Below are positions 3,217 to 63,767 of a stretch of DNA of 64,000 nucleotides, piece by piece. Under the pieces are notes generated by a model. The model had not been told where the DNA came from and ran no database searches. It worked only from the letters and a program-made list of their open reading frames with translations. Origin of the DNA: Burkholderiales bacterium. Its GTDB lineage: Bacteria; Pseudomonadota; Gammaproteobacteria; Burkholderiales; SG8-41. The position numbers were made by a program, and so were the translations under genes. Position 1 is the stretch's first letter, and each line of letters opens with the position of its first letter. The stretch lies in the NCBI GenBank assembly GCA_022843705.1, contig JALHND010000003.1, positions 8,963 to 72,962 on the forward strand. The letters run 5' to 3'.

Positions 3217-6152
<2,936 letters not shown>

Positions 6153-14802: not shown

Positions 14803-14891
14803 GGGGGGGTAAGCCGGTGGACTCTTGTCGGATACGGTGAATGCCAGTCTGCATTCTGCCCGTTGCCGGCCGGCCTCTCAATGCCGCGGTG

Positions 14892-15564: not shown

Positions 15565-15660
15565 GAGGTTGCTGGCCTGCTGTCACGAAAGCGCAATACT
15601 CTACGCCCCATTTTCTTGCACCGCAACATTACTGTCACCGGATCACGACAACAGCCCTGG

Positions 15661-24077: not shown

Positions 24078-24306
24078 GCAGGACCAGTTCGGATTCTGGA
24101 TGCGCCGCAGCAAAACGGAGTCCGTGGGTGCCTCAATGACGGGAATGGGGGCCGTCGGACTGTCTTTTCGGCGATTCCGGACACCTGCGGGTAATGGTAG
24201 CCTGCCGTTCCGGCGTGCTGTCCGTTTTCCGGTTCGTGCATGATCAATGCGGCGTTTCCCTGCGAGGCGGCGACCCGGACAATGTCAACCGAGGACTGCC
24301 AGAGGC

Positions 24307-49388: not shown

Positions 49389-50852
49389 TTACTGACCTTG
49401 GCCCAGCGAGTATCCCGGCACGCCGTCGAAGCTGCACAGGTGCTCGGTCTTGATGAAATCGAAACCCGCCGCCGCCAGGGTGCCGAGCAGAGCCACCACA
49501 TCGGCGTGGCTGATCGTGGCCACGGCATCAGCGGGCATGAAGCGGCAGCGCCAGTGGTCGGTGCACAGGGTTTCGGGCAGACCGTCCGGCCAGACCTTGA
49601 CGCCGCGGTTGGTGATCATCTTCAGTGCGAGCTTGCCGGTGGCGACCATGTTCAGCGCCGCGCCGAGATCGTCGGGCTTGCCCTCGTGCCAGTGCAGGAA
49701 CACATCCACCCCGACCAGGGCCTTGCGTGACGGTGCGCGGATCGGCGCCGGCGCGTGCTTGTCCTGCGCCGCTGCGAATTGCACCGGTTTCAGCTTCTCC
49801 GGGATCCGCCCGAGGCGGGCGATCACCGCCTGCGCGAAGGCGCGGGTGCCGACTTTTTGCACGGTGTGCGGACCGGCGATGTCGGCGGTGTGCACGCCGT
49901 CCTCCATCGTGCGCAGCCAGGCGTTCTGCACACGCGTGGCGATTTCGCCCTGGCCGATGTGGGCGAGCAGCATCGCCGCGGCCTGGATCAGGCCGGAGGG
50001 ATTGGCGATGTCCTGACCGGCGATGTCCGGCGCGCTGCCATGCACTGCCTCGAACATCGCGACGTGGTCGCCGATGTTCGAGGAACCGGCCAGCCCGATC
50101 GAGCCGGCGATCTGCGCCGCGACGTCGGACAGGATGTCGCCATATAGGTTGGGCATCACCACCACATCGAAACGCGTCGGATCGTCGGCGAGCAGCGCCG
50201 CGCCGATGTCGACGATGCGGTGCTCCTTCTCCAGTTCCGGATATTGCACTCCGATTTCGTCAAACACCTTGTGGAAGAGACCGTCGGTCATCTTCATGAT
50301 GTTGTCCTTGGTGAAGCAGGTCACCTTGCGACGGCCGTTGACACGCGCATATTCGAAGGCGTAGCGCACGATACGCTCGCAGCCGGGACGGGAGATCAGC
50401 TTCAGGCACTGGTAGACCTCGTCGGTCTGGCGGTGCTCGATGCCGGCGTAGAGGTCTTCCTCGTTCTCGCGCACGATCACCACATCCATGCCGGGATGGC
50501 GGGTGTCGACGAAGGGGTGGTAGGTCACGCAGGGGCGCACGTTGGCGTAGAGACCCAGCGTCTTGCGGATGGTGACGTTGAGGCTCTTGTAGCCGCCACC
50601 CTGGGGAGTGGTTATTGGCGCCTTCAGCAGCAGCCCGGTCCGGCGCAGAACCTCCCAGGACTGCGGCGCGATCCCCGAACTGATGCCGCTCCGGTAGACC
50701 TTTTCGCCGACCTCGATCGGTTCCCAGTCGATGCGCGCACCTGCGGCGTCAATGACGGCCATCGTGGCGGCGAGTATTTCAGGCCCGATGCCGTCGCCCT
50801 CGGCGACGGCGACGGCGGTGCGGGTCAACTGGCGGGGTTCGGCAAGATCCAT
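49389..50852 (-). CDS. icd: Isocitrate dehydrogenase (isocitrate/isopropylmalate DH family) with ~140-aa C-terminal extra domain
   Basis: 487 aa: AVAEGDGIGPEI, SLNVTIRKTLGLYANVRP, VIVRENEEDLYAG, NLYGDILSD. Cofactor specificity is not decidable from sequence by eye. Confidence 0.88.
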   Translation of the reverse strand: MDLAEPRQLTRTAVAVAEGDGIGPEILAATMAVIDAAGARIDWEPIEVGEKVYRSGISSGIAPQSWEVLRRTGLLLKAPITTPQGGGYKSLNVTIRKTLGLYANVRPCVTYHPFVDTRHPGMDVVIVRENEEDLYAGIEHRQTDEVYQCLKLISRPGCERIVRYAFEYARVNGRRKVTCFTKDNIMKMTDGLFHKVFDEIGVQYPELEKEHRIVDIGAALLADDPTRFDVVVMPNLYGDILSDVAAQIAGSIGLAGSSNIGDHVAMFEAVHGSAPDIAGQDIANPSGLIQAAAMLLAHIGQGEIATRVQNAWLRTMEDGVHTADIAGPHTVQKVGTRAFAQAVIARLGRIPEKLKPVQFAAAQDKHAPAPIRAPSRKALVGVDVFLHWHEGKPDDLGAALNMVATGKLALKMITNRGVKVWPDGLPETLCTDHWRCRFMPADAVATISHADVVALLGTLAAAGFDFIKTEHLCSFDGVPGYSLGQGQ

Positions 50853-50943
50853 GGTCGGGCTCCTGTGGGCGGTTGGTCGGTGAACGCCGTGAATCCTAAG
50901 TGCCGGCAGCCATTGTTAAAAATGATATTTCTGGATAAAACAT

Positions 50944-50959
50944 ATAGACTGCAGTCTAT
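50944..50959. promoter_or_regulatory. Perfect 16-bp palindrome overlapping the LysR start codon
   Basis: ATAGACTGCAGTCTAT. Its last two bases are the AT of the ATG at 50958. Lies in the icd/LysR divergent region. Candidate autoregulatory operator. Confidence 0.35.
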
Positions 50960-51971
50960 GAACAAGCCGAAACGTCCCCCGGTCACCCTGCACCAGCTGC
51001 GCGTGTTCGAAGCGGTGGCGCGCCAGCTGTCGTTCACGCGTGCCGCTGACGAGCTGCATCTGTCACAGCCCACCGTGTCTGTCCAGGTCAGGGAGCTTGC
51101 CGTGGCGGTGGGCTTGCCGCTGTTCGAGCAGCTTGGGCGACGCATCCGGCTTACCGCGGCCGGAACCGAGTTGCTGGCTTCCGCGCGCGCGATGTTCGAG
51201 ACCTGGGACCGCTTCGAAATGCGGGTGGCCGACCTGCAGGGCCTGCGCCGGGGTGCGCTGAGGGTGTCTGCGGTGACCACCGCCACCTATTTCGTGCCGC
51301 GCCTGCTCGGACCTTTTTCCGAGGCCTATCCCGGGATCGAGCTGTCGCTCGAGGTGGCCCGCCGCGATGACATCGTGCAGCGCCTGATCGAAGGGCGCGA
51401 TGACCTCTACATCATGGGTGTGCCGCCGACCGACCTGGAGATCCACGAACTGCCGATACTCGACAATCCGCTGGTGGTCGTCGCGCCGCGCAACCACAGG
51501 CTCGCCGGCCGGAAGGGCCTTCCCCTGAAGGCGCTGGAGGAGCAGCCGTTCCTGGTCCGGGAGCAGGGATCGGGCACCCGCATGGCCAGCGAACGCTATT
51601 TCCAGCGCCATGGTTTCAAGCCGCGCGTGCGCATGGCGCTGGGGAGCAACGAAGCCATCAAGCAGGCGGTCGCCGGCGGCTTCGGGCTGGCGGTGCTGTC
51701 CTTGCACGCACTGGGCATGGATGCAACCGACGGCGGCCTGGTCCTGCTGGACGTCGAGGGATTCCCGATCCGGCGCAAGTGGTATGCGGTGTATCCCAAG
51801 GCGCGGCCGCTGTCGATCGTTGCCACCACGTTTCTGCAATACCTGCGCGGTCAGACCGGCGGGCTGCCGAATGTTGATGCCCTGCTGGCGGATTGGCGCC
51901 GCGGCGCAGCAAATCGCCGCCGGTTTCCGGAACGCGGCAATTCTGTTGACCGCAAACATCCGGCGGCATAA
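50958..51971 (+). CDS. LysR-family transcriptional regulator, CbbR-like
   Basis: Track ORF 50220..51971 trimmed to MNKPKRPPVTLHQLRVFEAVARQLSFTRAADELHLSQPTVSVQVRELAVAVGLPLFEQ (ATG 50958). Overall pattern closely resembles CbbR/RbcR regulators. Confidence 0.85.
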   Translation: MNKPKRPPVTLHQLRVFEAVARQLSFTRAADELHLSQPTVSVQVRELAVAVGLPLFEQLGRRIRLTAAGTELLASARAMFETWDRFEMRVADLQGLRRGALRVSAVTTATYFVPRLLGPFSEAYPGIELSLEVARRDDIVQRLIEGRDDLYIMGVPPTDLEIHELPILDNPLVVVAPRNHRLAGRKGLPLKALEEQPFLVREQGSGTRMASERYFQRHGFKPRVRMALGSNEAIKQAVAGGFGLAVLSLHALGMDATDGGLVLLDVEGFPIRRKWYAVYPKARPLSIVATTFLQYLRGQTGGLPNVDALLADWRRGAANRRRFPERGNSVDRKHPAA

Positions 51972-52113
51972 TCTGCCGTTCGCGCATTCCTTTGCGCGCC
52001 CATGCGGCGTTCGACCGCAGGCCACAAGATTCAACCGGGGAATTCAGCCAGCATCCGCGCGCATTCCGGCGCGGGCCGCAATGCAGTACCCAACAAACCG
52101 CTGAGGAGAAGTC

Positions 52114-52602
52114 ATGGCGCAACTGAACATCAATGGCCGCAATTACGAGGTCAACGTCGAAGCCGACACCCCGCTGCTGTGGGCTATCCGGGAGCAGGTC
52201 GGGCTGACAGGCACCAAGTACGGCTGCGGCGTGGCGCAATGTGGCGCCTGCTCGATCCATCTCAACGGCGAAGTGGTGCGCTCCTGCGCGCTGCCGGTTG
52301 CCGCGATCAAACCCGGCGACCGCATCACCACCATCGAGGGCCTGTCGAAGGACAGCTCGCATCCGGTGCAGAAGGCCTGGGCGGCGATCGACGTGCCGCA
52401 GTGCGGCTACTGCCAGTCGGGCCAGATCATGGCGGCCGTGGCGCTGCTGGCGAAGAAGCCGAAGCCCACGGACAAGGATATCGACGAGGCGATGACCAAC
52501 ATCTGCCGCTGCGGCACCTATCACCGCATCCGCGCAGCGGTCCACATGGCCGCTGGCGGCAAGTTTGCCGCTGCAGTGACCGCCGATCAACAGAACGCCT
52601 GA
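52114..52602 (+). CDS. [2Fe-2S] small subunit of an XDH-family molybdoenzyme (IorA/aldehyde dehydrogenase type)
   Basis: 162 aa with two cluster motifs, [21 protein letters not shown] and [10 protein letters not shown]...CRCGTY. Good RBS (GAGGAGAAG). Confidence 0.9.
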
Positions 52603-52618
52603 GCCGGGGAGAGACGAC

Positions 52619-54826
52619 ATGAACGACCTGATGAATCCCGGACAAGCTCCGAAAATTTCCCGCCGCAAGTTCCTCGTCGGCGGCGCCGCTGCGGGCAGCG
52701 GTCTCGTGCTGGGTTTCCATCTGCCCTTCGGCATCGGCAGCGCTGCAGCCCAGGGTGCCGCGGCGGATGCCGAGGTGAACATCTGGGTGGTGGTGAAGCC
52801 CGACGACACCTGCGTGATCCGCATCGCCCGCGCCGAGATGGGCCAGGGCACGCTGACCGGTCTGGCGCAGCTGGTGGCCGAGGAACTGGAATGCGACTGG
52901 AAAAAAGTCTCCACCGAGCAGATCACGGCCGGCCAGAATCTCGCGCGCAAACGCGCCTGGGGCGTGATGTCGACTGCGGGCAGCCGCGGCATCCGCGAGT
53001 CGCAGGACTACGTGCGCCGCGGTGGTGCGGCGGCACGCATGATGCTGCTGCAGGCGGCGGCCAATGAATGGGGCGTGCCGGTCGGCGAACTGCGCGTCGC
53101 CAATGGCGTGATCACGCACTCCGGTTCCGGCCGCAGCACCAGCTACGGCAAGGTGGCGGGTGCGGCGGCGAAACTGACGCCGCCCGATCCGAAGAGCATC
53201 CAGCTGAAAGCGGTCAAGGACTGGAAAATCGCCGGCAAGGGCCTGCGCCGGCTGGATACCGCGGACAAGCTCAACGGCGCCAAGGTCTATGCCATCGACC
53301 TGAAGATGCCCGGCATGCTGCATGCGACGGTCAAGGACTGCCCGGTCTACGGCGGCAAGCTGCTGAGTTTCGACGAGTCGAAAGTCATCGGCATGCCTGG
53401 CGTCAAGCGTGTGATGAAGATCAACGACAGCACCGTCGCAGTGGTGGCCGACACCTGGTGGCGGGCGAAGAAGGCGCTGGATGCGCTGCCGATCGTGTGG
53501 GACGAAGGCCCCCATGCCAAGGTCAACAGTGCATCGATCGCGAAACACCTGGAATCGGGGCTGACCTCGAGCGACGCCTTTGCCGACATCGACACCGGTG
53601 ATGCACCGAAGGCGATTGCCGCCTCGGCGAAGAAGATCGAGGCCGTCTACAGTGTGCCCTTCACCTCGCACACCACGATGGAGCCGATGAACTGCACGGT
53701 GAAGCTGTCGCCGGACAAGTCGGAAATCTGGATCCCGACCCAGAACGCCGAGGCTTCGCTCGCTGCGCTGTCTTCCTCCTCCGGCCAGCCGCTCGAGAAG
53801 TGCGAGGTGTACGTGATGGACCTCGGCGGCGGTTTCGGCCGGCGCATCGGCAACCAGGACGTGGTACGCCAGGGCGTGGCAATCGCGAAAGCTTTTCCCG
53901 GAATACCGGTGAAAATGGTGTGGAGCCGCGAGGAAGACCAGGCGCACGATTTCTACCGGCCGATTGCCCAGGCGCGCATGGCTGCGGGTGTTGATGACAA
54001 GGGCAACCTGACCGGCCTGCACATCCGCGTGTCCGGCCAGTCGATCAACGCCTTTGCCAACCCGGCGGCGATCAAGGACGGCAAGGACCGGCGCCAGCTG
54101 CAGGGCCTGTGGCCGCAGCCGCATGATGCCCAGTTCGGTTACACGCATGCCAACCTGCGCACCGAGTATGCGATGCGCAACACCCATCTGCCGGTGGGGC
54201 CGTGGCGCGGCGTCAATACCAACCAGAACGGCATATTCAGCGAGTGTTTCATGGATGAAGTGGCGAAACTGGCCGGCAGGGATCCGCTGGAGTTCCGCCG
54301 TGCGCTGATGAGTGAACGTCCGAAACACCTGGGCGTGCTCAACGCCGCCGCCGAGAAGGCGGGCTGGGGCAAGCCGCTGCCGAAAGGCGTGTTCCGCGGT
54401 ATCGCCCAGTTCATGGGTTACGGCAGCTATTCCGCGGCAGTGGCCGAGGTCTCGGTCAGCGCCAAGGGCGAGGTCAAGGTTCACCGCTGCGTGTTTGCGC
54501 TCGACTGCGGCAATGTCGTCAATCCGGACCAGACGGCCGCGCAGATCGAGGGCTCGGTGGCCTACGGCATGACCACGCTGCAGAGCGAGATTTCGGTGGC
54601 CAACGGACGCATCGTGGAAACCAACTTCCACAATTTCCGCGTCATGAAAATCGCCGAAATGCCCAAGGTTGAAGTGATCCTGCCGGTGACCGGTGACTTC
54701 TGGGGTGGCGTGGGCGAGCCGACGATCTGCGTGGTGGTGCCGGCGATCCTCAATGCCATCCATGCCGCGACCGGCAAGCCGGTGCGCAGCCTGCCGTTGT
54801 CGAAGCAGGGGCTGACGCTGGTCTGA
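52619..54826 (+). CDS. Molybdopterin-binding large subunit of an XDH-family oxidoreductase (IorB type), Tat signal
   Basis: 735 aa, SRRKFLVGGAAAGSGLVLG twin-arginine signal, and IorB-type blocks (AEMGQGTLT, GGGFGRR, GVGEPT). Confidence 0.9.
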   Translation: MNDLMNPGQAPKISRRKFLVGGAAAGSGLVLGFHLPFGIGSAAAQGAAADAEVNIWVVVKPDDTCVIRIARAEMGQGTLTGLAQLVAEELECDWKKVSTEQITAGQNLARKRAWGVMSTAGSRGIRESQDYVRRGGAAARMMLLQAAANEWGVPVGELRVANGVITHSGSGRSTSYGKVAGAAAKLTPPDPKSIQLKAVKDWKIAGKGLRRLDTADKLNGAKVYAIDLKMPGMLHATVKDCPVYGGKLLSFDESKVIGMPGVKRVMKINDSTVAVVADTWWRAKKALDALPIVWDEGPHAKVNSASIAKHLESGLTSSDAFADIDTGDAPKAIAASAKKIEAVYSVPFTSHTTMEPMNCTVKLSPDKSEIWIPTQNAEASLAALSSSSGQPLEKCEVYVMDLGGGFGRRIGNQDVVRQGVAIAKAFPGIPVKMVWSREEDQAHDFYRPIAQARMAAGVDDKGNLTGLHIRVSGQSINAFANPAAIKDGKDRRQLQGLWPQPHDAQFGYTHANLRTEYAMRNTHLPVGPWRGVNTNQNGIFSECFMDEVAKLAGRDPLEFRRALMSERPKHLGVLNAAAEKAGWGKPLPKGVFRGIAQFMGYGSYSAAVAEVSVSAKGEVKVHRCVFALDCGNVVNPDQTAAQIEGSVAYGMTTLQSEISVANGRIVETNFHNFRVMKIAEMPKVEVILPVTGDFWGGVGEPTICVVVPAILNAIHAATGKPVRSLPLSKQGLTLV

Positions 54827-54837
54827 GCCGGGGCGCA

Positions 54838-55278
54838 ATGCGCGTTCCGGCCTGGAGCCTGCTGTGTGCCGCGACGGCTGCCTGTGCCGTGGCGGCGCCG
54901 CAGGCTCTTGTTCCGTACCGGATCGACGGTGATGCGATCCCCGCGCCGCTGTCGGCGCAGCCGGGTGATCCGCTGCGGGGCCGCGACATCATCGCCGGGC
55001 GCGACGCCAACTGCCTGCTCTGCCATGCGGTGCCCGAAACCGGGCGGCGTTTCATGGGCAATATCGCGCCGCCGCTGTCCGGCATCGGTGCGCGGCTGTC
55101 GGCGGCCCAGCTGCGGCTGCGCATTGTTGACCAGTCGCGTTTGAACCCGGAGACCGTGATGCCGTCCTACTACAAGCTTGAGGGCCTGAACCGGGTGGCC
55201 GCGGCTTACCGCGGCAAACCGGTGCTCAGTGCCGCACAGATCGAAGACGTGGTCGCTTACCTGCAAACCCTGAAATAA
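54838..55278 (+). CDS. soxX: SoxX-like monohaem c-type cytochrome
   Basis: 146 aa with a signal peptide, the single CLLCH haem site in the context GRDANCLLCHAVPE, MPSYYK, and a C-terminal AAQIEDVVAYLQTLK typical of SoxX. Confidence 0.75.
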   Translation: MRVPAWSLLCAATAACAVAAPQALVPYRIDGDAIPAPLSAQPGDPLRGRDIIAGRDANCLLCHAVPETGRRFMGNIAPPLSGIGARLSAAQLRLRIVDQSRLNPETVMPSYYKLEGLNRVAAAYRGKPVLSAAQIEDVVAYLQTLK

Positions 55279-55285
55279 TCCGCTG

Positions 55286-55735
55286 ATGCCTGACCGCCGC
55301 CGATTCCTGTTGACCAGCACCGCGCTAGCCGGCGGCCTGCTGTGTGCGCGTCTGGCGGCTGCCCAGCAGAATCCGCAGCGTGCAGCGCTGTTGCGTGAAG
55401 TGACCGGCGGTGCGCCGGTCAACGCCGGCCGGGTCACCGTCGATACGCCGCCGCTGGCCGACAACGGCCATTCGGTGGCAGTACGGGTGATGGTCGACAG
55501 CCCGATGACGGCGCAGGATCACGTCCGCCGCATCACGCTGCTCGCCGAGCGCAATCCGCGGCCGGTGGTCGCGAGTTTCACGCTGGGCCCGCACTCCGGC
55601 AAGGCGGAAATCGCCACCCGCATCCGGCTTGCCGACATCCAGGACGTGCTGGCGCTGGCGCAGTTGTCCGACGGCAGTTGGTGGATGGGCGGCGCGCATG
55701 TTGTCGTCACCGAACTGGCCTGCCTGGAGGGTTGA
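55286..55735 (+). CDS. SoxY-related carrier protein with non-canonical C-terminal arm (...VVVTELACLEG)
   Basis: 149 aa, Tat signal DRRRFLLTSTALAGGLL, SoxY-like Ig-fold blocks (PPLADNGHSVAVRV, ITLLAERNPRPVVASF). The C-terminus carries a single Cys in ACLEG instead of GGCGG. Confidence 0.75.
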   Translation: MPDRRRFLLTSTALAGGLLCARLAAAQQNPQRAALLREVTGGAPVNAGRVTVDTPPLADNGHSVAVRVMVDSPMTAQDHVRRITLLAERNPRPVVASFTLGPHSGKAEIATRIRLADIQDVLALAQLSDGSWWMGGAHVVVTELACLEG

Positions 55736-55736
55736 G

Positions 55737-56060
55737 ATGCTGTCCCGCGTACAGGTGCCGGCCAACGCGCGACGCGGCGAGATTGTCCAGGTGCGCATCG
55801 CCATCCAGCATCCGATGGAGACTGGTTACCGGCCCGACAATTTTGGCCGGCGCATTCCGAAAAACGTGATCAATACACTGATCTGCCGCTACAACGGCAG
55901 CGAGGTGTTCAGGGCAGAGATGGGTTCGGGCATTGCCGCGAATCCGCTGCTGCAGTTTCCGGTGCGGGTGCAGGAGAGCGGGGAATTCGTGTTCGAGTGG
56001 CGCGATGATTCGGGCGAACGCGGCGAGTCGCGCGCGGTCATCACCGTGAGCGCGGACTGA
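55737..56060 (+). CDS. soxZ: Thiosulfate-oxidation carrier complex protein SoxZ
   Basis: Track ORF 55629..56060 trimmed to MLSRVQVPANARRGEIVQVRIAIQHPMETGYRPDNFGRRIPKNVINTLICRYNGSEVF (ATG 55737, 1 nt after the soxY-like stop). Confidence 0.8.
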   Translation: MLSRVQVPANARRGEIVQVRIAIQHPMETGYRPDNFGRRIPKNVINTLICRYNGSEVFRAEMGSGIAANPLLQFPVRVQESGEFVFEWRDDSGERGESRAVITVSAD

Positions 56061-56062
56061 AA

Positions 56063-56094
56063 TCAGGCCGGCCGTGTGACGCGGCAGCCGGCCT
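56063..56094. terminator. GC-rich hairpin between convergent soxZ and small ORF
   Basis: CAGGCCGGC-N14-GCCGGCCTG, a 9-bp perfect stem. No clear U-tract on either side, so it may act as a bidirectional terminator or RNA-stability element. Confidence 0.45.
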
Positions 56095-56133
56095 GAAGTT
56101 GCCGGGGATCATTGCAGCCCGGCGCGATGCCGC

Positions 56134-56295
56134 TTACTTCTTGGCCTTGCAGCGCTCGTGATCCGGCGTTTTTTTGCAGTCGACGGGTTTTTCCGCGGAT
56201 TGTTGCTGCGTCACGGCATGGGCCGTACCCATGGCGAACACCAGTGCGGCGGCAACGGGAGCGAGGAATTTGCGGACAGTGTTTTGCATGGACAT
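56134..56295 (-). CDS. Small secreted Lys-rich two-cysteine peptide (hypothetical)
   Basis: Track ORF 56134..56451 trimmed to MSMQNTVRKFLAPVAAALVFAMGTAHA-VTQQQSAEKPVDCKKTPDHERCKAKK (53 aa). AGGAG lies 6 nt upstream of the ATG, the signal peptide is clean, and it has its own sigma54-type promoter. Confidence 0.45.
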   Translation of the reverse strand: MSMQNTVRKFLAPVAAALVFAMGTAHAVTQQQSAEKPVDCKKTPDHERCKAKK

Positions 56296-56351
56296 GTAGT
56301 ACTCCTGTGTAGTCAGAGAAAAACAGGCCGGACGACCTGTGCAGGGAACAA

Positions 56352-56367
56352 TGCGGATTCCGTGCCA
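56352..56367 (-). promoter_or_regulatory. sigma54 (-24/-12)-type promoter upstream of the small peptide gene
   Basis: Minus strand TGGCACGGAATCCGCAT (GG-N10-GC exact), about 60 nt upstream of the ATG at 56295. Confidence 0.5.
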
Positions 56368-56375
56368 CGTCATAT

Positions 56376-56400
56376 TTATCAATAAAATCAAATACTTATG
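56376..56400. promoter_or_regulatory. AT-rich IHF-consensus motif, copy B
   Basis: TTATCAATAAAATCAAATACTTATG contains AATCAAATACTTA = WATCAANNNNTTR. Centre is about 25-30 nt upstream of the -24 element, the classical IHF position in sigma54 promoters. Confidence 0.5.
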
Positions 56401-56474
56401 ATTTATCTGCAAGGGCGATGCTGTCGGCCGGGGGCGACGGAAGGAGAACACATATCGTCAAGCCTTTGAAATTC

Positions 56475-57266
56475 ATGGGAGTTCCCGGGTCGTTGATCCG
56501 CAACACTGCGGCGCTGTGCCTGTTGTTGCTGCCGCTGCAAACCACCGTGTTTGCGCAAACGCCGGCGGCCCCGCCGCGTTCCGGCATCGAATTCGCCGGT
56601 GCCGACGTGCGCGCGCTGCAGGCCGACGATTTCGCCAATCCCGGCATGTTGTGGGTCGCGCGCGGCGAAAAACTCTGGAACACGCCGGCCGGGCGCGGTG
56701 TTCAGTCCTGTGCAAGTTGTCATGGCGATGCGGCTCCCAGCATGAAAGGTGTCGCCGCGCGTTACCCGCGTGTCGATGCGGCGACCTCGAAAGTGGTCAA
56801 TCTCGAAGGACGCATCAACCGCTGCCGCACCGGGCGGCAGCAGGCCGGTCCGCTGCGTTACGAATCGGAAGAACTGCTGGCATTGACTGCCTACGTCGCG
56901 CACCAGTCGCGCGGCCAGCCCTTGCAGCCGGCGGCGAAGGAAGAGCAGGCTGCGCTGCAACGCGGCCGCGAAATCTTTCACCGGCGCCAGGGCCAGATGA
57001 ACCTGGCCTGCATCCACTGCCATGTGCAGAACGCCGGCCGCAAACTGCTGGCCGACACCATCAGCGAAGGCCACGGCAATGCCTATCCGGTTTACCGGCT
57101 GGAATGGCAATCCGTCGGCTCGTTGCAGCGGCGGCTGCGCGCCTGTTATTTCGGCGTGCGCGCCGAACAGCCGGCCTTCGGTACTGACGAGCTGCTCGAT
57201 CTCGAGCTGTATCTGGCGCGCCGTGGCGCAGGGCTGGCGATCGAGACACCGGGCGTCCGGCGCTAG
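56475..57266 (+). CDS. soxA: Dihaem c-type cytochrome SoxA
   Basis: Haem sites CASCH and CIHCH, conserved distal Cys in LQRRLRACYFGVRAEQ, signal peptide MGVPGSLIRNTAALCLLLLPLQTTVFA-QT. An alternative upstream ATG exists at 56418. Confidence 0.85.
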   Translation: MGVPGSLIRNTAALCLLLLPLQTTVFAQTPAAPPRSGIEFAGADVRALQADDFANPGMLWVARGEKLWNTPAGRGVQSCASCHGDAAPSMKGVAARYPRVDAATSKVVNLEGRINRCRTGRQQAGPLRYESEELLALTAYVAHQSRGQPLQPAAKEEQAALQRGREIFHRRQGQMNLACIHCHVQNAGRKLLADTISEGHGNAYPVYRLEWQSVGSLQRRLRACYFGVRAEQPAFGTDELLDLELYLARRGAGLAIETPGVRR

Positions 57267-57368
57267 TGTTTTGCGTCGTCATGACACGCTGAATTTACAG
57301 CCTTGACTCTCCACGGGGTGCGGCGCAACCTGATCCGCGCAGCACAACCAAACTGGGGGAGACAATAA

Positions 57369-57983
57369 ATGAAACGCAGAGCGTTCTGCAGTACGGCAGC
57401 CCTGTTGCTGGTTGCCGCAAGCCTGAGCGGATGTGCGCACAGGGGATCGGACTGGGTCACGCTGATCGACGGTGAAAAGGGGCTCGACAACTTCAACCGC
57501 ATCGGCGACGTCAACTGGCGGGCCGAGGGCGGTGCGATCGTCGGTGACAAGGGCAAGGGCGGGCACCTGGTGACGAAAAACTCGTACACCGATTTCGAGA
57601 TCTACGCCGAGTTCTGGGCTGACACCACCACCAACAGCGGCATTTTTGTCCGCGCCTCGGATCCGAAAAAAATCGGCGCCGACAGCGCCTACGAAGTGAA
57701 CATCTACGACCAGCGTCCCGGCCCGGAGTACGCCACCGGTGCCATCGTCGGTTTCGCGCGGACACCGGTCCCGAGTCCATACAAGGCCGGCGGCAGGTGG
57801 AACAATTTCGAGATCTACGTCAAGGGCACGGAAATCACCGTCAAGTTCAACGGCACGGTGACGGTCCACCTGCAGGACAGCAAGTTCGCCTCGGGGCCGT
57901 TTTCCTTGCAGTTCGGCAACGGGCCCAAGGATGCACCGGGCGGCGCGATCAAGTGGCGCAAGCTGCAGGTTCGCACGCTGTAG
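57369..57983 (+). CDS. DUF1080 (3-keto-disaccharide hydrolase-like) lipoprotein
   Basis: 204 aa, lipobox LSGC. WRAEGGAIVG, NSYTDFEIYAEFW...NSGIFVR and GPFSLQ blocks typical of DUF1080. Confidence 0.8.
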   Translation: MKRRAFCSTAALLLVAASLSGCAHRGSDWVTLIDGEKGLDNFNRIGDVNWRAEGGAIVGDKGKGGHLVTKNSYTDFEIYAEFWADTTTNSGIFVRASDPKKIGADSAYEVNIYDQRPGPEYATGAIVGFARTPVPSPYKAGGRWNNFEIYVKGTEITVKFNGTVTVHLQDSKFASGPFSLQFGNGPKDAPGGAIKWRKLQVRTL

Positions 57984-58003
57984 CGCCGCAACACCCGACA
58001 GTG

Positions 58004-58037
58004 CGCCGGACCGGGTCCTCCCGGTCCGGCGTTTTTT
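58004..58037 (+). terminator. Rho-independent terminator after the DUF1080 gene
   Basis: CGCCGGACCGGG-tcct-CCCGGTCCGGCG (perfect 12-bp stem) followed by TTTTTT. Confidence 0.85.
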
Positions 58038-58051
58038 ATTCCGCTTTCCGC

Positions 58052-59938
58052 TCAGAGCTCGATGCGCGTGCCCAGTTCGATCACGCGGTTCGCCGGCAGG
58101 TGGAAATACTCGACCACGCTGCTGGCGTTGCGTGCCATCGCCGCGAACAGACGCTCGCGCCACAGCGCCATGCCGTCCTCGCCGCCGGCCACCGGCACCA
58201 GCGTTTCGCGGCTGAGGAAAAACGAGGTCTCCATCATCTCGAACTCGAGCCCGTGCTGACGGCACAGCTCCAGCGCCTGCGGCACGTCGGTGCGGTTCTT
58301 GAAGCCGAAATGCAGGCGCACCCGCCAGCAGCCGTTGCCCAGCGACTCGACCGCGACCCGTTCTCCGAAGGGAATCCAGGGCACGTCAGCCACCGTCACT
58401 GTCAGCAGCACCACGCGTTCATGCAGCACCTTGTTGTGCGACAGGTTGTGCAGCAGGGCATGTGGCACTGCATTGCCGTCGGCGACCATGAACACCGCAG
58501 TGCCGGGCACGCGGTGCGGCGGGAACTGCAGCAGTGACTTGAAGAAATCCTCCACCGGAATCGCCGAGGCGCGCAGGCGGTCGGCAAGGATGCGGCGGCC
58601 GCGGCGCCAGGTCAGCATCAGCACCAGCATCATCGAACCCAGCGCCAGCGGGAACCAGCCGCCGCCGGCGACCTTGAGCAGGCTCGACGAGAAGAAGGCG
58701 AGATCGACGACGATGAAAAATCCGGTGGCGGCGATGCACAGCGCGAGGTTGTAACCCCAGTGGTAACGGATCACGAAAAAGGTGAGGAAGGTCGTCGCCA
58801 GCATGGTGCCGGTGACGGCGACGCCGTAGGCCGAGGCGAGCTCCGATGACGAGCCGAAGCCGAGCACCGCGGCGATCACCACCGCAAGCAGGATCCAGTT
58901 GACCGCCGGCATGTAGATCTGGCCGGCTTCCCTGGCCGAAGTCTGCAGCACGCTCATCCGCGGCAGGTAACCGAGCTGGATCGCCTGCCGCGTCAGCGAA
59001 TAGGCGCCGGAGATCGTCGCCTGCGAGGCGATCACGGTGGCCGCGGTGGCGAGCATCACCATCGGGTACAGCGCCCAGTCCGGATAGAGCAGGTAGAAGG
59101 GATTGCTGACTGCCGACGGTTCGGTCAGCAGCAGCGCGCCCTGGCCGAGATAGTTCAGCGCCAGCGCCGGGAACACCAGGCCGAACCAGGCGCTGCGGAT
59201 CGCCTGCTTGCCGAAATGGCCCATGTCCGCGTACAGCGCCTCGGCGCCGGTGAAGGCCAGCAGCACCGCGCCCAGCACGACGAAGGACGCGAAGCCGTGG
59301 CCGGTGACGAAATGGAAGGCGTGGGTCGGGTCCAGCGCCTGCAGGATTTCCGGCGCGCGCGAGATGCCCTGCAGGCCCGCCGCGCCGAGCGCGAGGAACC
59401 AGAGGATCACGATCGGGCCGAACAGCGCGCCGACACGCGCGGTGCCGAAACGCTGGAAGGAAAACAGGCCGATCAGCACGCCGCAGGCGATCGGCAGCAC
59501 ATAGGGTTTGAAGGCGGAGGTGCCGATTTCCAGGCCCTCGACCGCAGACAGCACCGAGATCGCCGGGGTCAGCACCGCGTCGCCGTAGAACAGCGCCGCG
59601 CCGGCCAGTCCGGCGAAGAGGATCGCCGCGTACTGCCGGGGATGGTTTTTGCAGGCCGAGGAGGCCAGCGCCAGCAGCGCCATGATGCCGCCCTCGCCCT
59701 TGTTGTGGGCGCGCATGATGAGGACGACGTACTTGAGCGAGACCACCAGCATCAGCGCCCACAGGATGGCCGAGATGCCGCCGAGGATGGTGCCGGTCTG
59801 CAGGGGGATGGCGTGACCGGGAGCGAAGGTTTCTTTCACCGCGTAGAGCGGGCTGGTGCCGATGTCGCCGTAGACGATGCCGAGGGCGGCGAGGGTCAGT
59901 GCGGCGCGGGATTCCTTGAAACGCGGGTCGGTATCCAT
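58052..59938 (-). CDS. kup: Potassium uptake protein Kup
   Basis: 628 aa, LAALGIVYGDIGTSPLYA N-terminal signature, 12 TM plus a cytoplasmic C-domain. Confidence 0.95.
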   Translation of the reverse strand: MDTDPRFKESRAALTLAALGIVYGDIGTSPLYAVKETFAPGHAIPLQTGTILGGISAILWALMLVVSLKYVVLIMRAHNKGEGGIMALLALASSACKNHPRQYAAILFAGLAGAALFYGDAVLTPAISVLSAVEGLEIGTSAFKPYVLPIACGVLIGLFSFQRFGTARVGALFGPIVILWFLALGAAGLQGISRAPEILQALDPTHAFHFVTGHGFASFVVLGAVLLAFTGAEALYADMGHFGKQAIRSAWFGLVFPALALNYLGQGALLLTEPSAVSNPFYLLYPDWALYPMVMLATAATVIASQATISGAYSLTRQAIQLGYLPRMSVLQTSAREAGQIYMPAVNWILLAVVIAAVLGFGSSSELASAYGVAVTGTMLATTFLTFFVIRYHWGYNLALCIAATGFFIVVDLAFFSSSLLKVAGGGWFPLALGSMMLVLMLTWRRGRRILADRLRASAIPVEDFFKSLLQFPPHRVPGTAVFMVADGNAVPHALLHNLSHNKVLHERVVLLTVTVADVPWIPFGERVAVESLGNGCWRVRLHFGFKNRTDVPQALELCRQHGLEFEMMETSFFLSRETLVPVAGGEDGMALWRERLFAAMARNASSVVEYFHLPANRVIELGTRIEL

Positions 59939-60784: not shown

Positions 60785-61840
60785 TCAGCGCAAGCCGGCG
60801 TTGATCTTTTCCAGCGCAGCCGAACCCGGGCAGAGATCCCGGGTGCCGAGCTGGTTCAGCGGGGTGGGCACGGTGTTGATGTACTGGTGCAGGTCTGCGG
60901 CTTCGGGCGAGAGGTAGAGCAGGCCGGTGACGATTTCGCCGGCGGCAGCGCGTTCCTGCACGTAGTTCATTGCCTTGATGCGGTCGGTCGGATCGTAGTC
61001 GACGGCGAGTTTGCGCAGCTTGAGAATCGAGCCGTCGTGCTGGGTGATGTTGACCAGTTCGCCCGGTTCGTAGTCGGCGGTGATTTCCTCGCGGCCTTCG
61101 ATGAAGTCGAGGCGGTTGACCGCGGCGTTGTGCTGGCGCACGTATTCGTAGGACTTGGTCGAGCCTTCGTGGTTGTTGAAGGCGACGCAGGGCGAGATGA
61201 CGTCGATGAAGGACGGGCCGGGGTGTTTGATCGCGGCCTTGATCAGCGGCACCAGCTGTTTTTTGTCGCCGGAGAAGGCGCGGGCGACGAAGGTCGCGCG
61301 CAGCAGCAGCGCCATGCCGACCAGGTCCACCGGCTCGTCGGGATTCAGCACGCCGCGCTTGGATTTCGAGCCCTTGGTCGCGGTGGCGGAGAACTGGCCC
61401 TTGGTCAGGCCGTAGACGCCGTTGTTCTCGACGATGTAGACCATGTTGACGCCGCGGCGGATGCAGTGCGCGAACTGGCCGAGTCCGATCGAGGCCGAGT
61501 CGCCGTCGCCGGAAACGCCGAGGTACAGCAGTTCGCGGTTGGCGAGGTTGGCGCCGGTCAGCACCGAGGGCATGCGGCCGTGCACGCTGTTGAAGCCGTG
61601 CGAATTGCCGAGGAAATAGTCCGGGGTTTTCGAGGAGCAGCCGATGCCCGAGAGTTTGGCGACGCGGTGCGGCTGGATGTCGAGTTCCCAGCAGGACTGG
61701 ATGATCGCCGCCGAGATCGAGTCGTGGCCGCAGCCGGCGCAGAGCGTCGAGATCTTGCCCTCGTAGTCGCGGCGGGTGTAGCCGGCGGCATTGGGGGCGA
61801 GCGATGGGTGGTGCAGCTTGGGTTTGGCGATGTAGGTCAT
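60785..61840 (-). CDS. korB: 2-oxoacid (2-oxoglutarate):ferredoxin oxidoreductase beta subunit
   Basis: 351 aa with the Cys motif STLCAGCGHDS and TPP-binding GDGDSASIG...NNGVYGLTKGQ. Confidence 0.9.
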   Translation of the reverse strand: MTYIAKPKLHHPSLAPNAAGYTRRDYEGKISTLCAGCGHDSISAAIIQSCWELDIQPHRVAKLSGIGCSSKTPDYFLGNSHGFNSVHGRMPSVLTGANLANRELLYLGVSGDGDSASIGLGQFAHCIRRGVNMVYIVENNGVYGLTKGQFSATATKGSKSKRGVLNPDEPVDLVGMALLLRATFVARAFSGDKKQLVPLIKAAIKHPGPSFIDVISPCVAFNNHEGSTKSYEYVRQHNAAVNRLDFIEGREEITADYEPGELVNITQHDGSILKLRKLAVDYDPTDRIKAMNYVQERAAAGEIVTGLLYLSPEAADLHQYINTVPTPLNQLGTRDLCPGSAALEKINAGLR

Positions 61841-61854
61841 TTTTTAAACTCGTT

Positions 61855-61886
61855 AGGAGTGAGGGGTGAGAAGTGAGGGGTGAGAA
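61855..61886. repeat. GTGAGG-type repeat, copy 3 (single arm) in the korA-korB spacer
   Basis: aggagtgaggggtgagaagtgaggggtgagaa, two 11-nt units of the same GTGAGG motif. Confidence 0.65.
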
Positions 61887-61931
61887 AACCCGAAGGCCAC
61901 CCAATCTTCATTTCGCAATCCTTTATCCTGA

Positions 61932-63767
61932 TCAAGATGCCTTCTTCAGCGGCACCACGCTGCGCGCGCCGGCATGCTGGGAGATCTGGTCGACGATGAA
62001 ACGCGCGGTGATCGGCGTGCCGTCGTAGTGCAGCACCGAAATCAGCCGCGCCGGGTTGATCTTGCCGTCGTTGACCAGCAGGGTTTTCAGCTGGGCGTCG
62101 CGGTTCTGCTCGATTACGAACACCCAGGGATGCGAGGCGACGAAGTCGGCGACTTCGTCGGCGAAGGGGAAGCCGCGCACCCTGAGCGCGTTGACGTGGA
62201 TGCCCTTCTCCGCCAGCAGGTCGAGCGCTTCTTGCATCGCCGGGCTGGTCGAGCCGTAGAAAATCGCGCCGAAACGCGCCGGCTTGTCGGCCGGGTAGAG
62301 CAGCGGTTTCGGCACCAGCGACTTCGCGGTCTCGAACTTGCGCATCAGGCGCTGCATGTTGTCGACGTAGTCGGGGCCGGCCTCTGAATACTGTGCGTAG
62401 CGGTTCTTGGTGGTGCCGCGGGTGAAATAGCCGCCCTTGGTCGGGTGGGTGCCGGGATAGGTGCGGAAGGGGATGCCGTCGCCGTCGACGTCGAGGTAAC
62501 GCCCGAAGTCGGCGCCGGCTTCCAGCCGTTCGTAGGTCATCACCTTGCCGCGGTCGTATTCCTTCGTGTCGTCCCAGGCGAAGGGGCGGCACAGCCGCGT
62601 GTTCATGCCGATGTCGAGGTCGGTCATCACGAACACCGGCGTCTGCAGGCGTTCGGCGATGTCGAAGGACTGCGCCGTCATCTCGAAACACTCGGTCGGG
62701 TCTTCCGGGAACAGAAGCGGGTGCTTGGTGTCGCCGTGCGAGGCATAGGCACAGGCCAGCACGTCGGACTGCTGGGTGCGCGTCGGCATGCCGGTCGAGG
62801 GGCCGCCGCGCTGCACGTCGACCAGCACCACCGGGATCTCGGCGAAATAGGCGAGACCGATGAACTCGGTCATCAGCGAGATGCCGGGGCCCGAGGTCGC
62901 GGTGAAGGCCCTTGCGCCGTTCCAGCCGGCGCCGATGGCGATGCCGATCGAGGCCAGCTCGTCCTCGCCCTGGATGATCGCGTACTTGTTCTTGCCGCTG
63001 TCGCCGTCCACGCGCAGCTTCTTGCAGTAGGCCATGAAGGCCTCGGCCACCGACGAGGACGGCGTGATCGGATACCAGGCGCAGACCGAGGCGCCGCCGT
63101 AGACGGCACCCAGTGCCACCGCGCTGTTGCCGTCGGCGAAGATGCGTTCGCCGACGTTGTCCGCGGCCTGGATGCGGATGCCCAGCGGGCAGGGCAGGTT
63201 TTTCAGCGCGTAGTCGCGCCCGAGCTGCAGCGCCTTGATGTTCGACTGCAGCAGCGCCTCCTTGCCCTTGTACTGCTCGGAGAACAATTGCTCGATGACC
63301 TTGGGATCGATTTCCAGCATCGCCGACAGCGCGCCGACGTAGATGATGTTCTTGAACAGCTGGCGCTGGCGCGGATCGCTGTAGGTGGTGTTGCAGATTT
63401 CCGTCAGCGGCATGCCGATGCGGGTGATGTCCGGGCGGAACTTGCTTTCGGGCAGCGGCTTGGAATTGTCGTAGAACAGGTAGCCGCCGGTCTCGATTTC
63501 CTTGAGATCGTTGTCCCAGGTCTGCGGGTTCATCGCCACCATCAGGTCGACGCCGCCGCGGCGGCCGAGGTAACCCTTCTCAGTGACCCTAACCTCGTAC
63601 CAGGTCGGCAGGCCCTGGATGTTCGAGGGGAAGATGTTGCGCGGGCTGACCGGCACGCCCATGCGCAGGATCGAGCGCGCGAACAGTTCATTGGCCGAGG
63701 CCGAGCCCGAGCCGTTGACGTTGGCGAACTTGACGACGAAATCGTTGGTGGCGGTGATGGGGGTCAT
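61932..63767 (-). CDS. korA: 2-oxoacid (2-oxoglutarate):ferredoxin oxidoreductase alpha subunit (gamma-alpha fusion)
   Basis: 611 aa. N-terminal gamma-type domain (FANVNGSGSASANELFARS), then an alpha domain (AWYPITPSS, ASIGIAIGAGWNGARAFTATSGPG). Confidence 0.9.
   Translation of the reverse strand: MTPITATNDFVVKFANVNGSGSASANELFARSILRMGVPVSPRNIFPSNIQGLPTWYEVRVTEKGYLGRRGGVDLMVAMNPQTWDNDLKEIETGGYLFYDNSKPLPESKFRPDITRIGMPLTEICNTTYSDPRQRQLFKNIIYVGALSAMLEIDPKVIEQLFSEQYKGKEALLQSNIKALQLGRDYALKNLPCPLGIRIQAADNVGERIFADGNSAVALGAVYGGASVCAWYPITPSSSVAEAFMAYCKKLRVDGDSGKNKYAIIQGEDELASIGIAIGAGWNGARAFTATSGPGISLMTEFIGLAYFAEIPVVLVDVQRGGPSTGMPTRTQQSDVLACAYASHGDTKHPLLFPEDPTECFEMTAQSFDIAERLQTPVFVMTDLDIGMNTRLCRPFAWDDTKEYDRGKVMTYERLEAGADFGRYLDVDGDGIPFRTYPGTHPTKGGYFTRGTTKNRYAQYSEAGPDYVDNMQRLMRKFETAKSLVPKPLLYPADKPARFGAIFYGSTSPAMQEALDLLAEKGIHVNALRVRGFPFADEVADFVASHPWVFVIEQNRDAQLKTLLVNDGKINPARLISVLHYDGTPITARFIVDQISQHAGARSVVPLKKAS

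Follow-up and report, generated by a model that had tools for sequence, protein, structure and literature searches.

Why should a molybdenum hydroxylase of the xanthine-oxidase family be encoded side by side with a SoxY-type carrier and Sox cytochromes? The question is raised by the following features of the window, by which we mean the whole 64-kb stretch of DNA that was analyzed:

50958..51971, plus strand, LysR-family regulator gene (Pfam HTH_1 and LysR_substrate), directly upstream of the module
52114..52602, plus strand, IorA, small subunit with two [2Fe-2S] clusters (Pfam Fer2 and Fer2_2)
52619..54826, plus strand, IorB, Tat-exported molybdopterin large subunit of the xanthine-oxidase family (Pfam MoCoBD_1/2)
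54838..55278, plus strand, SoxX-type monoheme cytochrome c (NCBIfam TIGR04485)
55286..55735, plus strand, SoxY paralogue, a carrier with a Tat signal (best score to NCBIfam TIGR04487, below its cut-off)
55737..56060, plus strand, SoxZ, the carrier partner (NCBIfam TIGR04490; Pfam SoxZ)
about 56063..56096, no strand, GC-rich hairpin (folding energy against shuffles)
56134-56295, minus strand, small 53-aa ORF, convergent with SoxZ (ORF call)
56418..57266, plus strand, SoxA, diheme cytochrome (NCBIfam TIGR04484)

The five genes from IorA to SoxZ all lie on the plus strand and are separated by gaps of 16, 11, 7, and 1 nt, confirming the ORF coordinates and five-gene packing given in a preliminary description of this DNA. 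The hairpin that it placed after SoxZ is also real (-24.6 kcal/mol, z = -2.0, with 5 of 200 shuffles folding equally well). Situated between SoxZ and the convergent 53-aa minus-strand ORF, the hairpin has no T-run and is absent from the terminator-like calls. In the lineage of the window, SoxZ and SoxA are parted by this small ORF of opposite orientation; in most related loci, SoxA lies directly 3' of SoxZ. The LysR-family gene, which is also called at 50958..51971 in identical contigs and is found upstream in the relatives L010, L022, L027, and L032, is a candidate regulator of the module. Values of dN/dS range from 0.06 to 0.30 across all six window genes, and purifying selection acts on every one of them. 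Neither soxB nor soxCD was found among the ORFs scanned in the 64-kb window (the large, high-GC3 subset), in keeping with the earlier remark that neither was in view.

IorA lacks a signal peptide, has weak and partial NCBIfam matches to XDH/aldehyde-oxidoreductase Fe-S subunits, and has a dN/dS of 0.08 to 0.16. IorB bears a twin-arginine motif (SRRKFLVGG) and retains the catalytic-Glu motif GVGEP. Its best solved relative is the large subunit of the Gluconobacter membrane aldehyde dehydrogenase (8GY3_C, E = 5e-75), although the two align only remotely, at 257 bits across some 720 residues, against 55 to 57% identity to the Sox-linked orthologues, and no NCBIfam equivalog matches IorB at or above its cut-off. 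Family searches revealed no XdhC/PaoD-like chaperone gene in the cluster.

The product of the gene at 54838 scores 78 bits against TIGR04485 (cut-off, 61) and matches R. sulfidophilum SoxX over its full length (1H31_B, E = 5e-26), which bears out the earlier SoxX assignment and rules out a generic Ior cytochrome subunit; its heme motif is CLLCH, and the Met ligand lies in ETVMPSYY. The diheme SoxA reported downstream is upheld by its TIGR04484 score (233 bits; cut-off, 110) and two CxxCH motifs. SoxA aligns over its full length with 1H31_A (E = 1e-46), with CASCH, CIHCH, INRCRTGR, and RLRACYFG conserved and both Cys heme ligands retained, and its true start is probably at 56475, because the signal peptide begins at M20. 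SoxZ scores 87 bits against TIGR04490 (cut-off, 76) and has no signal peptide.

The SoxY-like protein scores 161.7 bits against TIGR04487 ("SoxY-related AACIE arm protein"; cut-off, 172) and 89.5 bits against the true-SoxY model TIGR04488 (cut-off, 125). It carries the Tat motif DRRRFLL, matches a SoxY of solved structure (PDB 2OX5_Y, E = 2e-16), and has the C terminus VTELACLEG, including Cys146, in place of GGCGG. The arm Cys is invariant within VTE[LST]ACL[ED] across 71 loci, GGCGG is missing from the arm of every SoxY found beside this IorB clade, and the window protein is one member of a large superfamily with AAC[ILV][ED] arms. This carrier family is already known: NCBIfam has a curated, named model for it in TIGR04487, with whose named members the window protein shares the fold, the Ala-Cys-aliphatic-acidic arm pattern, and the genomic context, differing in its LACLE rather than AACIE arm and in its score under the curated cut-off. 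Close relatives of the carrier are labeled simply "SoxY" in public annotation.

IorB adjoins this type of SoxY in 63 of the 65 informative SoxY-anchored genome loci, which come from uncultured Burkholderiales/Betaproteobacteria, extend down to 41% SoxY identity, and have differing flanks; the full six-gene set is present in 44 of these betaproteobacterial loci. All six AACIE-arm loci examined from cultured or named Alpha- and Gammaproteobacteria (Azorhizobium, Ancylobacter, Mesorhizobium, Azospirillum, Luteimonas, and a Geminicoccaceae MAG) form an eight-gene operon, IorA-IorB-cytochrome c-FccB-SoxX-SoxY-SoxZ-SoxA, amid unrelated flanks; the two additional members, a small c-type cytochrome and a flavoprotein resembling FccB, come directly after IorB, and SoxX comes later. 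Within 10 kb of these six loci, soxB and soxCD are absent, and the regulator is an OmpR-type two-component pair, not LysR. All six window proteins are 42 to 67% identical to their Alpha/Gamma counterparts (62 to 67% for IorA and 55 to 57% for the Sox-linked IorB), and in an IorB-anchored neighbor-joining tree the eight-gene form is basal and the six-gene form derived. Because IorB is adjacent at these frequencies in both sets, the linkage on which the preliminary description made its reading depend is conserved across genomes. The gene order is shared by Alpha-, Beta-, and Gammaproteobacteria, supporting the view that the six genes constitute a conserved functional unit.

The same type of cluster was reported by Kappler and Nouwens (2013) in Starkeya (Ancylobacter) novella as soxX2Y2Z2A2F2 (Snov_1982-1977), with the xanthine-oxidase-family Mo enzyme at Snov_1975/1976 (PMC3797975). 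Its transcripts were very low, nearly silent, on thiosulfate, methanol, and glucose; the SoxAX2 and SoxYZ2 proteins were undetected under the tested conditions; and the organism also has a complete canonical sox cluster (PMC3797975). The preliminary statement that no characterized example is known holds in that none was found, the S. novella report being the sole earlier one and assigning no function, but the arrangement itself had already been reported there (PMC3797975) and the carrier has its NCBIfam model. The window cluster is an FccAB-less version of this reported type. That it is a split remnant of a canonical sox cluster is unlikely, because S. novella has a canonical cluster besides and the module is equipped with a SoxXA and a SoxYZ of its own.

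The reading that we favor, with a probability of about 0.5, is that the betaproteobacterial genes encode an FccAB-less, self-contained periplasmic "second Sox" module, in which IorAB would work with a dedicated variant SoxYZ and the module's own SoxXA and would oxidize an adduct tethered to the carrier. Judging from the signals, IorAB (Tat on IorB) and SoxYZ (Tat on SoxY) would be exported folded, and SoxX and SoxA would follow the Sec route. SoxXA would couple a sulfur-containing substrate, probably not thiosulfate alone, oxidatively to Cys146 of the carrier arm; the arm would enter the substrate funnel of IorAB, and the tethered adduct would undergo a two-electron, water-dependent oxidation, putting IorAB in the place held by SoxCD and SoxB in the canonical pathway. 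We infer this action on a carrier-bound adduct, as we do the substrate and the direction of electron flow, which would run from the two [2Fe-2S] clusters to a c-type heme, whether in SoxX, in SoxA, or in some other cytochrome c of the periplasm. The established chemistry of the xanthine-oxidase family is hydroxylation at activated C-H centers, not O transfer to S, and this was counted against the favored reading; to our knowledge, a SoxCD-like reaction by an enzyme of this family would be without precedent.

One lineage has IorA-IorB-SoxY-SoxZ-DoxX, without SoxX and SoxA, and tandem IorA'B'-SoxY'Z' units are without their own SoxX, so that enzyme and carrier form the tightest pair. Seen from the IorB side, the linkage is not absolute: neither sox nor cytochrome genes adjoin IorAB in a stand-alone clade that is sister to that of the window and shares 66 to 73% identity with the window IorB. 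Essentially no fixed residue differences separate stand-alone from Sox-linked IorB, and IorAB may therefore not strictly need a carrier encoded in cis. SoxXYZA of this type occurs with IorAB 7 kb off or not seen in L074, L078, and L055, and the SoxXYZA operon of the L074/L078 subclade also includes genes for a hydrolase and an SDR. Three XoxF-like genes lie right behind the module in L042. Counted for the favored reading were the linkage as seen from SoxY and from IorB, the close pairing of enzyme and carrier, and the signs of functional competence (retained heme ligands in SoxX and SoxA, the catalytic Glu of IorB, and low dN/dS). Stand-alone IorAB, SoxXYZA with IorAB distant or unseen, the split-off SoxA, and the near-silent S. 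novella cluster were all counted against it.

IorAB might instead be a conventional dehydrogenase of the periplasm that oxidizes free aldehydes or N-heterocycles, with SoxX/SoxA replacing a multiheme third subunit and SoxYZ either serving SoxXA separately or regulating. Among solved structures, a membrane aldehyde dehydrogenase with a cytochrome c third subunit comes closest, SoxX stands directly behind IorB, and the stand-alone relatives, with neither a sox neighbor nor fixed sequence differences, are consistent with such an enzyme. However, IorAB-SoxYZ exists without SoxX/SoxA and as tandem units without their own SoxX, and in the eight-gene form IorB is followed by a small cytochrome c other than SoxX and by FccB. 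The preliminary idea of SoxX in the cytochrome slot as electron exit thus fits the gene order of the window but is not general. This explanation, which we consider unlikely, also leaves unexplained the special arm of every SoxY that adjoins the IorB clade. Similarly doubtful is a scheme, by analogy with glutathione-dependent formaldehyde oxidation, in which the carrier thiol would capture aldehydes or C1 units, IorAB would oxidize the Cys thiohemiacetal or thioester on the carrier, and SoxXA and FccAB would maintain the redox state of the thiol. The nearest structure to IorB is an aldehyde dehydrogenase, xanthine-oxidase-family chemistry suits carbon centers, other divergent SoxYZ are tied to PQQ alcohol/methanol dehydrogenases (TIGR04557 match; PMC11237559), and the XoxF-like genes of L042 and the hydrolase and SDR of L074/L078 would accord with it. 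Yet the PQQ link occurs in one locus only, there was no induction on methanol in S. novella (PMC3797975), and the intact catalytic Cys ligands of SoxXA, together with a sulfide dehydrogenase homologue of the FccB type, speak for sulfur chemistry.

It is very improbable that SoxYZ, charged with a persulfide by SoxXA or FccAB, serves in the periplasm to put in place or restore the cyanolysable Mo=S ligand of IorAB after export of the enzyme. Xanthine-oxidase-family enzymes require a terminal sulfido ligand, and both the lack of a chaperone gene seen in the cluster and the tight pairing of enzyme and carrier even without SoxXA would agree with such a role; but the proposal is purely inferential, stand-alone IorAB relatives do without a neighboring carrier, and devoting five or six proteins to the repair of a single enzyme is extravagant. 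We give least weight to redundant or vestigial duplicate sox genes without a function of their own, a possibility raised for S. novella, where transcripts are very low, no SoxAX2 or SoxYZ2 protein was detected, and a complete sox cluster is present besides (PMC3797975). Against it, the gene order is kept across three proteobacterial classes despite unrelated flanks, there is no variation in the cofactor ligands or the arm Cys, dN/dS is low (0.06 to 0.30), and dedicated regulators adjoin the cluster.

With the S. novella cluster, the window shares the same families, the order IorA-IorB...SoxX-SoxY-SoxZ-SoxA, and the lack of SoxB/SoxCD, its proteins having been compared through the congener Ancylobacter sp. 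IITR112 and five other Alpha/Gamma genomes (42 to 67% identity). The S. novella type has a small cytochrome c and FccB/SoxF2 between IorB and SoxX, both of which are missing from the window and from essentially every betaproteobacterial locus; its arm is LAACIE rather than ELACLE/ESACLD, its regulator is a two-component system rather than LysR type, and in the lineage of the window a small ORF of opposite orientation sets SoxA apart. Canonical Sox (SoxXA, SoxYZ, SoxB, and SoxCD) has in common with the window a ligand-intact SoxXA, a SoxYZ with a C-terminal Cys arm, and periplasmic parts, but its arm is GGCGG, its SoxB/SoxCD have no counterpart in the scanned window ORFs or within 10 kb at any related locus, and its SoxC is of the sulfite-oxidase rather than the xanthine-oxidase family. 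Divergent SoxYZ-like carriers are associated with PQQ alcohol/methanol dehydrogenases of the periplasm (SoxYZ-S2/S4; PMC11237559), and TIGR04557, the model for quinoprotein-dehydrogenase-associated SoxYZ-like carriers, was matched in the NCBIfam search. There, too, a SoxYZ-type carrier is recruited to a non-Sox periplasmic dehydrogenase, but as a fused SoxYZ with a PQQ partner and no SoxXA of its own, whereas the window has separate SoxY and SoxZ and a Mo hydroxylase partner. The three-subunit enzymes of the IorAB and membrane-bound aldehyde dehydrogenase kind (AldFGH type, PDB 8GY3) likewise lack an FAD subunit and pair a two-[2Fe-2S] small subunit with a large Moco subunit exported by Tat; they have a multiheme cytochrome c third subunit, which the window cluster does not encode, and the partners of the window IorAB are instead SoxX, SoxY, SoxZ, and SoxA.

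The five plus-strand open reading frames of the module lie where the preliminary description placed them, with intergenic gaps of 16, 11, 7, and 1 nt, and are followed by SoxA.

Genes of the module and the adjoining regulator
50958-51971, LysR regulator, directly upstream of IorA
52114-52602, plus strand, IorA; Pfam Fer2 and Fer2_2, both cluster motifs present
52619-54826, plus strand, IorB; Pfam MoCoBD_1/2, twin-arginine leader SRRKFLVGG
54838-55278, plus strand, SoxX, a 146-aa monoheme cytochrome; TIGR04485, 78 bits versus a cut-off of 61
55286-55735, plus strand, SoxY-like carrier; best family TIGR04487, 161.7 bits versus a cut-off of 172
55737-56060, plus strand, SoxZ; curated model, 87 bits versus a cut-off of 76
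56418-57266, plus strand, SoxA; TIGR04484, 233 bits versus a cut-off of 110

Profile assignment bears out the earlier identification of the protein encoded at 54838 as SoxX, which passes the curated model. The SoxY-like protein (here, the carrier) fails the true-SoxY model TIGR04488 (89.5 bits; cut-off, 125), and its C terminus reads VTELACLEG, with the GGCGG arm absent. TIGR04487 is the NCBIfam "SoxY-related AACIE arm protein," for which the window score falls just under the curated cut-off. The window arm is L-A-C-L-E, and those of its relatives run ESACLD, LAACIE, LAACTEE, and LSACLEE within one continuous superfamily. Contigs identical to the window were recovered from metagenomes of activated carbon and drinking water; its close relatives bear the annotation Burkholderiales MAG.

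All parts of the module are periplasmic, their cofactor ligands are intact, and selection on them is purifying. SoxA can be aligned over its whole length with SoxA of R. sulfidophilum (1H31_A) and retains both CxxCH motifs and both cysteine heme ligands, including the catalytic RLRAC; SoxX, aligned with 1H31_B, keeps its CxxCH and its methionine ligand; and IorB, whose best PDB match is 8GY3_C, keeps the catalytic glutamate of GxGEP. Pairwise comparisons with four relatives yield dN/dS ratios of 0.06 to 0.30 for all six genes. A vestigial duplicate was among the explanations considered for the module. That it is what remains of a split canonical sox cluster is rejected as unlikely, since it encodes a SoxXA and a SoxYZ of its own and forms a conserved stand-alone operon.

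The linkage seen in the window is conserved in its relatives. A SoxY-anchored scan, in which each GTDB species was represented by one genome, recovered 71 loci, all from uncultured Burkholderiales/Betaproteobacteria, and tblastn with the window proteins as queries places IorB beside the carrier in 63 of the 65 informative loci, a count that partly reflects the common synteny of one clade (RNB-TonB-aroE-mtgA ... korAB). The flanks differ in distant lineages (L044, L049, and L062-L073), and the linkage persists at SoxY identities as low as 41%. The full six-gene set occurs in 44 loci, nearly always in the order IorA-IorB-SoxX-SoxY-SoxZ-SoxA, with IorAB placed after SoxA in L060 and L065, and the arm cysteine is invariant within VTE[LST]ACL[ED] across the 71 loci. 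The gap between IorB and SoxX, which is 11 nt in the window and tens to a few hundred nucleotides in the betaproteobacterial genome loci, leaves no room for a small cytochrome c or FccB gene. Additional conserved neighbors were sought, yielding only synteny genes of one clade (korAB, mtgA, TonB, and RNB); methyltransferase/PLD/MFS, PQQ dehydrogenase, and DUF1080 neighbors are lineage-specific.

Three layout variants indicate that the enzyme-carrier pair is the most constant association. Tandem IorA'-IorB'-SoxY'-SoxZ' units with no SoxX of their own stand immediately upstream of the full module in L036, L038-L040, and L052; a second layout, IorA-IorB-SoxY-SoxZ-DoxX, dispenses with SoxX and SoxA (L071 [539-4848], L073, and L126); and the third, hydrolase-SDR-SoxX-SoxY-SoxZ-SoxA, characterizes an "EAACTDG" subclade whose IorBA pair (48% identical) lies at a distance of 7 kb. 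The tandem second units, from soil Burkholderiales MAGs, are divergent (arm VVVTLSACLEEGLI; IorB' ~57% identical), and the DoxX lineage, in which a DoxX-family membrane protein comes after SoxZ, consists of low-GC (~48%) lake Burkholderiales. The EAACTDG loci (L074 and L078 [8162-11488; 13863-16366]) have the arm EAACTDG[GS], an IorBA pair on the opposite strand, and, as co-operonic partners of SoxX-SoxY-SoxZ-SoxA, an alpha/beta hydrolase and a cytoplasmic-looking SDR; genes for cystathionine beta-synthase, a Cys/Met-metabolism PLP enzyme, and an MTHFR-like protein lie in the vicinity. With the L074-type SoxY as a second query, the matches were close uncultured relatives only. In L042, two full modules precede three genes for XoxF-like PQQ dehydrogenases and genes for a small cytochrome c and a cytochrome b561. 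Three further loci (L055, L057, and L060) encode a Tat-signal methyltransferase, a PLD/cardiolipin-synthase-like protein, SoxX-SoxY-SoxZ, an MFS transporter, and SoxA, the IorBA pair after SoxA in L060 being inverted.

SoxA directly succeeds SoxZ in most related loci, which makes the 0.36-kb gap between them in the window, with its small opposing ORF, a peculiarity of the window lineage. This ORF (56134-56295, minus strand), convergent with SoxZ and listed by gene callers in all identical contigs, encodes 53 aa with a signal peptide and two cysteines (MSMQNTVRKFLAPVAAALVFAMGTAHA and VTQQQSAEKPVDCKKTPDHERCKAKK), and an AT-rich stretch (56340-56417) lies between it and SoxA. The hairpin at which the preliminary description ended the gene run, situated between SoxZ and this ORF, is real (-24.6 kcal/mol; z = -2.0) but modest, having no T-run and passing unflagged in a terminator scan. 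Some 100 nt past SoxA is a gene for a 204-aa DUF1080/3-keto-disaccharide-hydrolase-domain protein (57369-57983, plus strand), after which comes a strong terminator-like hairpin with a T-run (58003-58032). Retention of the DUF1080 protein after SoxA is limited to the nearest relatives (L007-L010, ~60% identical), so it is probably no core part of the module. A promoter scan returned no match, and an Rfam scan of 50000-58500 gave a single sub-threshold chance match and nothing else.

As had been noted, neither SoxB nor SoxCD occurs among the large high-GC3 window ORFs scanned; those scanned in the rest of the window are housekeeping genes (mreBCD, gshAB, amtB, metH, aroE, mtgA, icd, kup, and korAB). 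The window also encodes a hybrid histidine kinase of 1515 aa (24247-28794, plus strand), in which numerous PAS domains accompany a HisKA, a HATPase, and a receiver domain. The beta and alpha subunits of a 2-oxoacid:ferredoxin oxidoreductase (60785-63767 and beyond, minus strand) lie 3' of the module, a synteny conserved in >20 related loci, and in related contigs a Fer4/Pyr_redox_2 protein is encoded after them.

Beyond the Betaproteobacteria, a representative-protein search (1.84 billion proteins) shows the window carrier to be a member of a large paralogue superfamily with VT[LEI][AS]AC[ILV][ED] arms; of the 150 best clusters, ~100 have arms of this type. Only through this search of the whole library was the AACIE family reached: one cluster corresponds to the Azorhizobium doebereinerae protein that NCBI names as an AACIE arm protein, and cultured Ancylobacter, Mesorhizobium, Xanthobacter, Azospirillum, and Luteimonas encode relatives of it. 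All six contexts examined contain an eight-gene operon, IorA-IorB-cytochrome-FccB-like-SoxX-SoxY(AACIE)-SoxZ-SoxA, in which the cytochrome is a CxxCH protein of ~105 aa; the Alpha/Gamma loci and many metagenome loci encode both the small cytochrome c and FccB. Neither soxB nor soxCD occurs within 10 kb of the operon in the six Alpha/Gamma loci, and an OmpR-type two-component pair adjoins four of the six, the remaining flanks being unrelated. The six window proteins are 42 to 67% identical to their counterparts in Ancylobacter, Azorhizobium, Mesorhizobium, Azospirillum, Luteimonas, and Geminicoccaceae, and far nearer to the Alpha/Gamma counterparts than to canonical SoxA/SoxX structures or Gluconobacter aldehyde dehydrogenase. 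The co-occurrence of enzyme and carrier is both tight and ancient.

An IorB-anchored metagenome scan retained 80 loci (IorB 57 to 96% identical to that of the window), 29 of them Sox-linked and 26 demonstrably unlinked, that is, with at least 1.5 kb downstream devoid of sox genes. In a neighbor-joining tree of IorB, the eight-gene form is basal, the six-gene form, including the window, is derived, and the sister to the window clade comprises stand-alone IorAB pairs that are 66 to 73% identical. These pairs (L092-L119, from metagenomes) form two-gene operons with no adjoining cytochrome c or sox gene. No residue is fixed between Sox-linked and stand-alone IorB, a single weak column (F/Y251) being the nearest to a distinction, and the SoxY beside the window-type IorB clade has a non-GGCGG arm in every case found. 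The linkage is robust and the finding real; the stand-alone clade and the occasional chromosomal separation of the two halves are the main caveats to reading IorAB as acting on the carrier.

The arrangement has been observed before, and a curated model of the carrier family exists. The gene order of an Ancylobacter locus (L084) is that of the second sox cluster of Starkeya (Ancylobacter) novella, whose transcripts are very low on glucose, methanol, and thiosulfate and whose SoxAX2 and SoxYZ2 went undetected by proteomics; a complete canonical sox cluster, with soxB and soxCD, lies elsewhere in that genome, and the authors of that work considered that the second cluster may be without functional significance or serve other conditions (PMC3797975). 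The failure of thiosulfate to induce this cluster speaks against its being the physiological substrate. A study of divergent SoxY proteins admitted only sequences with a GGC motif, thereby excluding the AAC-arm family (PMC11237559). A paper on SAR324 mentions both an isoquinoline oxidoreductase and FCSD-SoxYZ and draws no connection, and our literature search found no further paper on the S. novella-type arrangement.

The general idea of the preliminary description, a carrier-linked molybdenum enzyme with no characterized example, stands as a hypothesis. Tentatively, with a probability of about 0.35, IorAB would be the first xanthine-oxidase-family molybdenum hydroxylase to act on a protein-tethered substrate, held on the cysteine arm of a SoxYZ paralogue; it would then define a periplasmic pathway, independent of SoxB and SoxCD, that oxidizes a sulfur or organosulfur compound other than thiosulfate, and this pathway would be common among Proteobacteria of freshwater, soil, and drinking water. 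In the likeliest mechanism, SoxXA would couple a sulfur-bearing substrate oxidatively to the carrier arm cysteine, IorAB would next oxidize the tethered adduct, and electrons would exit through the [2Fe-2S] clusters to a c-type heme; that the Sox partners provide an electron exit only, or take part in Mo=S repair, was also considered. Xanthine-oxidase-family enzymes normally hydroxylate activated carbon centers, and SoxCD-like sulfane oxidation by IorAB would thus be, to our knowledge, unprecedented for the family. A carbon-containing adduct on the carrier, organosulfur or aldehyde-derived, is at least as plausible, and aldehyde capture was weighed as an explanation in itself. SoxF has a sulfide-oxidation or carrier-reactivation type of role in canonical Sox, and the flavocytochrome of the eight-gene form may add either activity to the proposed tethered oxidation by IorAB.

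Sox carriers are the textbook example of protein-tethered inorganic sulfur chemistry, and new roles are increasingly suspected for divergent SoxY paralogues. In the AAC-arm family, a dedicated molybdenum hydroxylase is almost always co-encoded, across three proteobacterial classes and under purifying selection, and metagenomes from lakes, soil, and drinking water contain the module in abundance. Should the carrier arm prove to be where the enzyme acts, the chemistry of the xanthine-oxidase family and that of Sox would each be broadened, and an unrecognized sulfur or organosulfur sink could emerge. Cultured hosts (Ancylobacter novellus, Azorhizobium, Mesorhizobium, and Luteimonas) make direct experiments possible, and a module so widespread, conserved, and tractable is of moderate to high interest.

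The window shares with canonical Sox an intact SoxXA pair with the catalytic Cys-ligated heme but has VTELACLEG where canonical SoxY has the GGCGG arm. It matches the three-subunit IorAB/AldFGH enzymes in its 2x[2Fe-2S] small subunit, its Tat-exported Moco large subunit, and the absence of an FAD subunit, whereas their multiheme cytochrome c third subunit is missing from the window cluster, where monoheme SoxX comes next instead. The carrier best matches the TIGR04487 family, yet at 161.7 bits it scores below the cut-off of 172. The order of the S. novella second sox cluster, with IorA-IorB upstream of SoxX-SoxY-SoxZ-SoxA, is the same in the window, but the SoxF2/FccB-like flavoprotein and small cytochrome c present there are absent. 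The window contains the S. novella-type second sox cluster in a reduced betaproteobacterial form, which lacks FccAB, bears an ELACLE arm, and is linked to a LysR gene.
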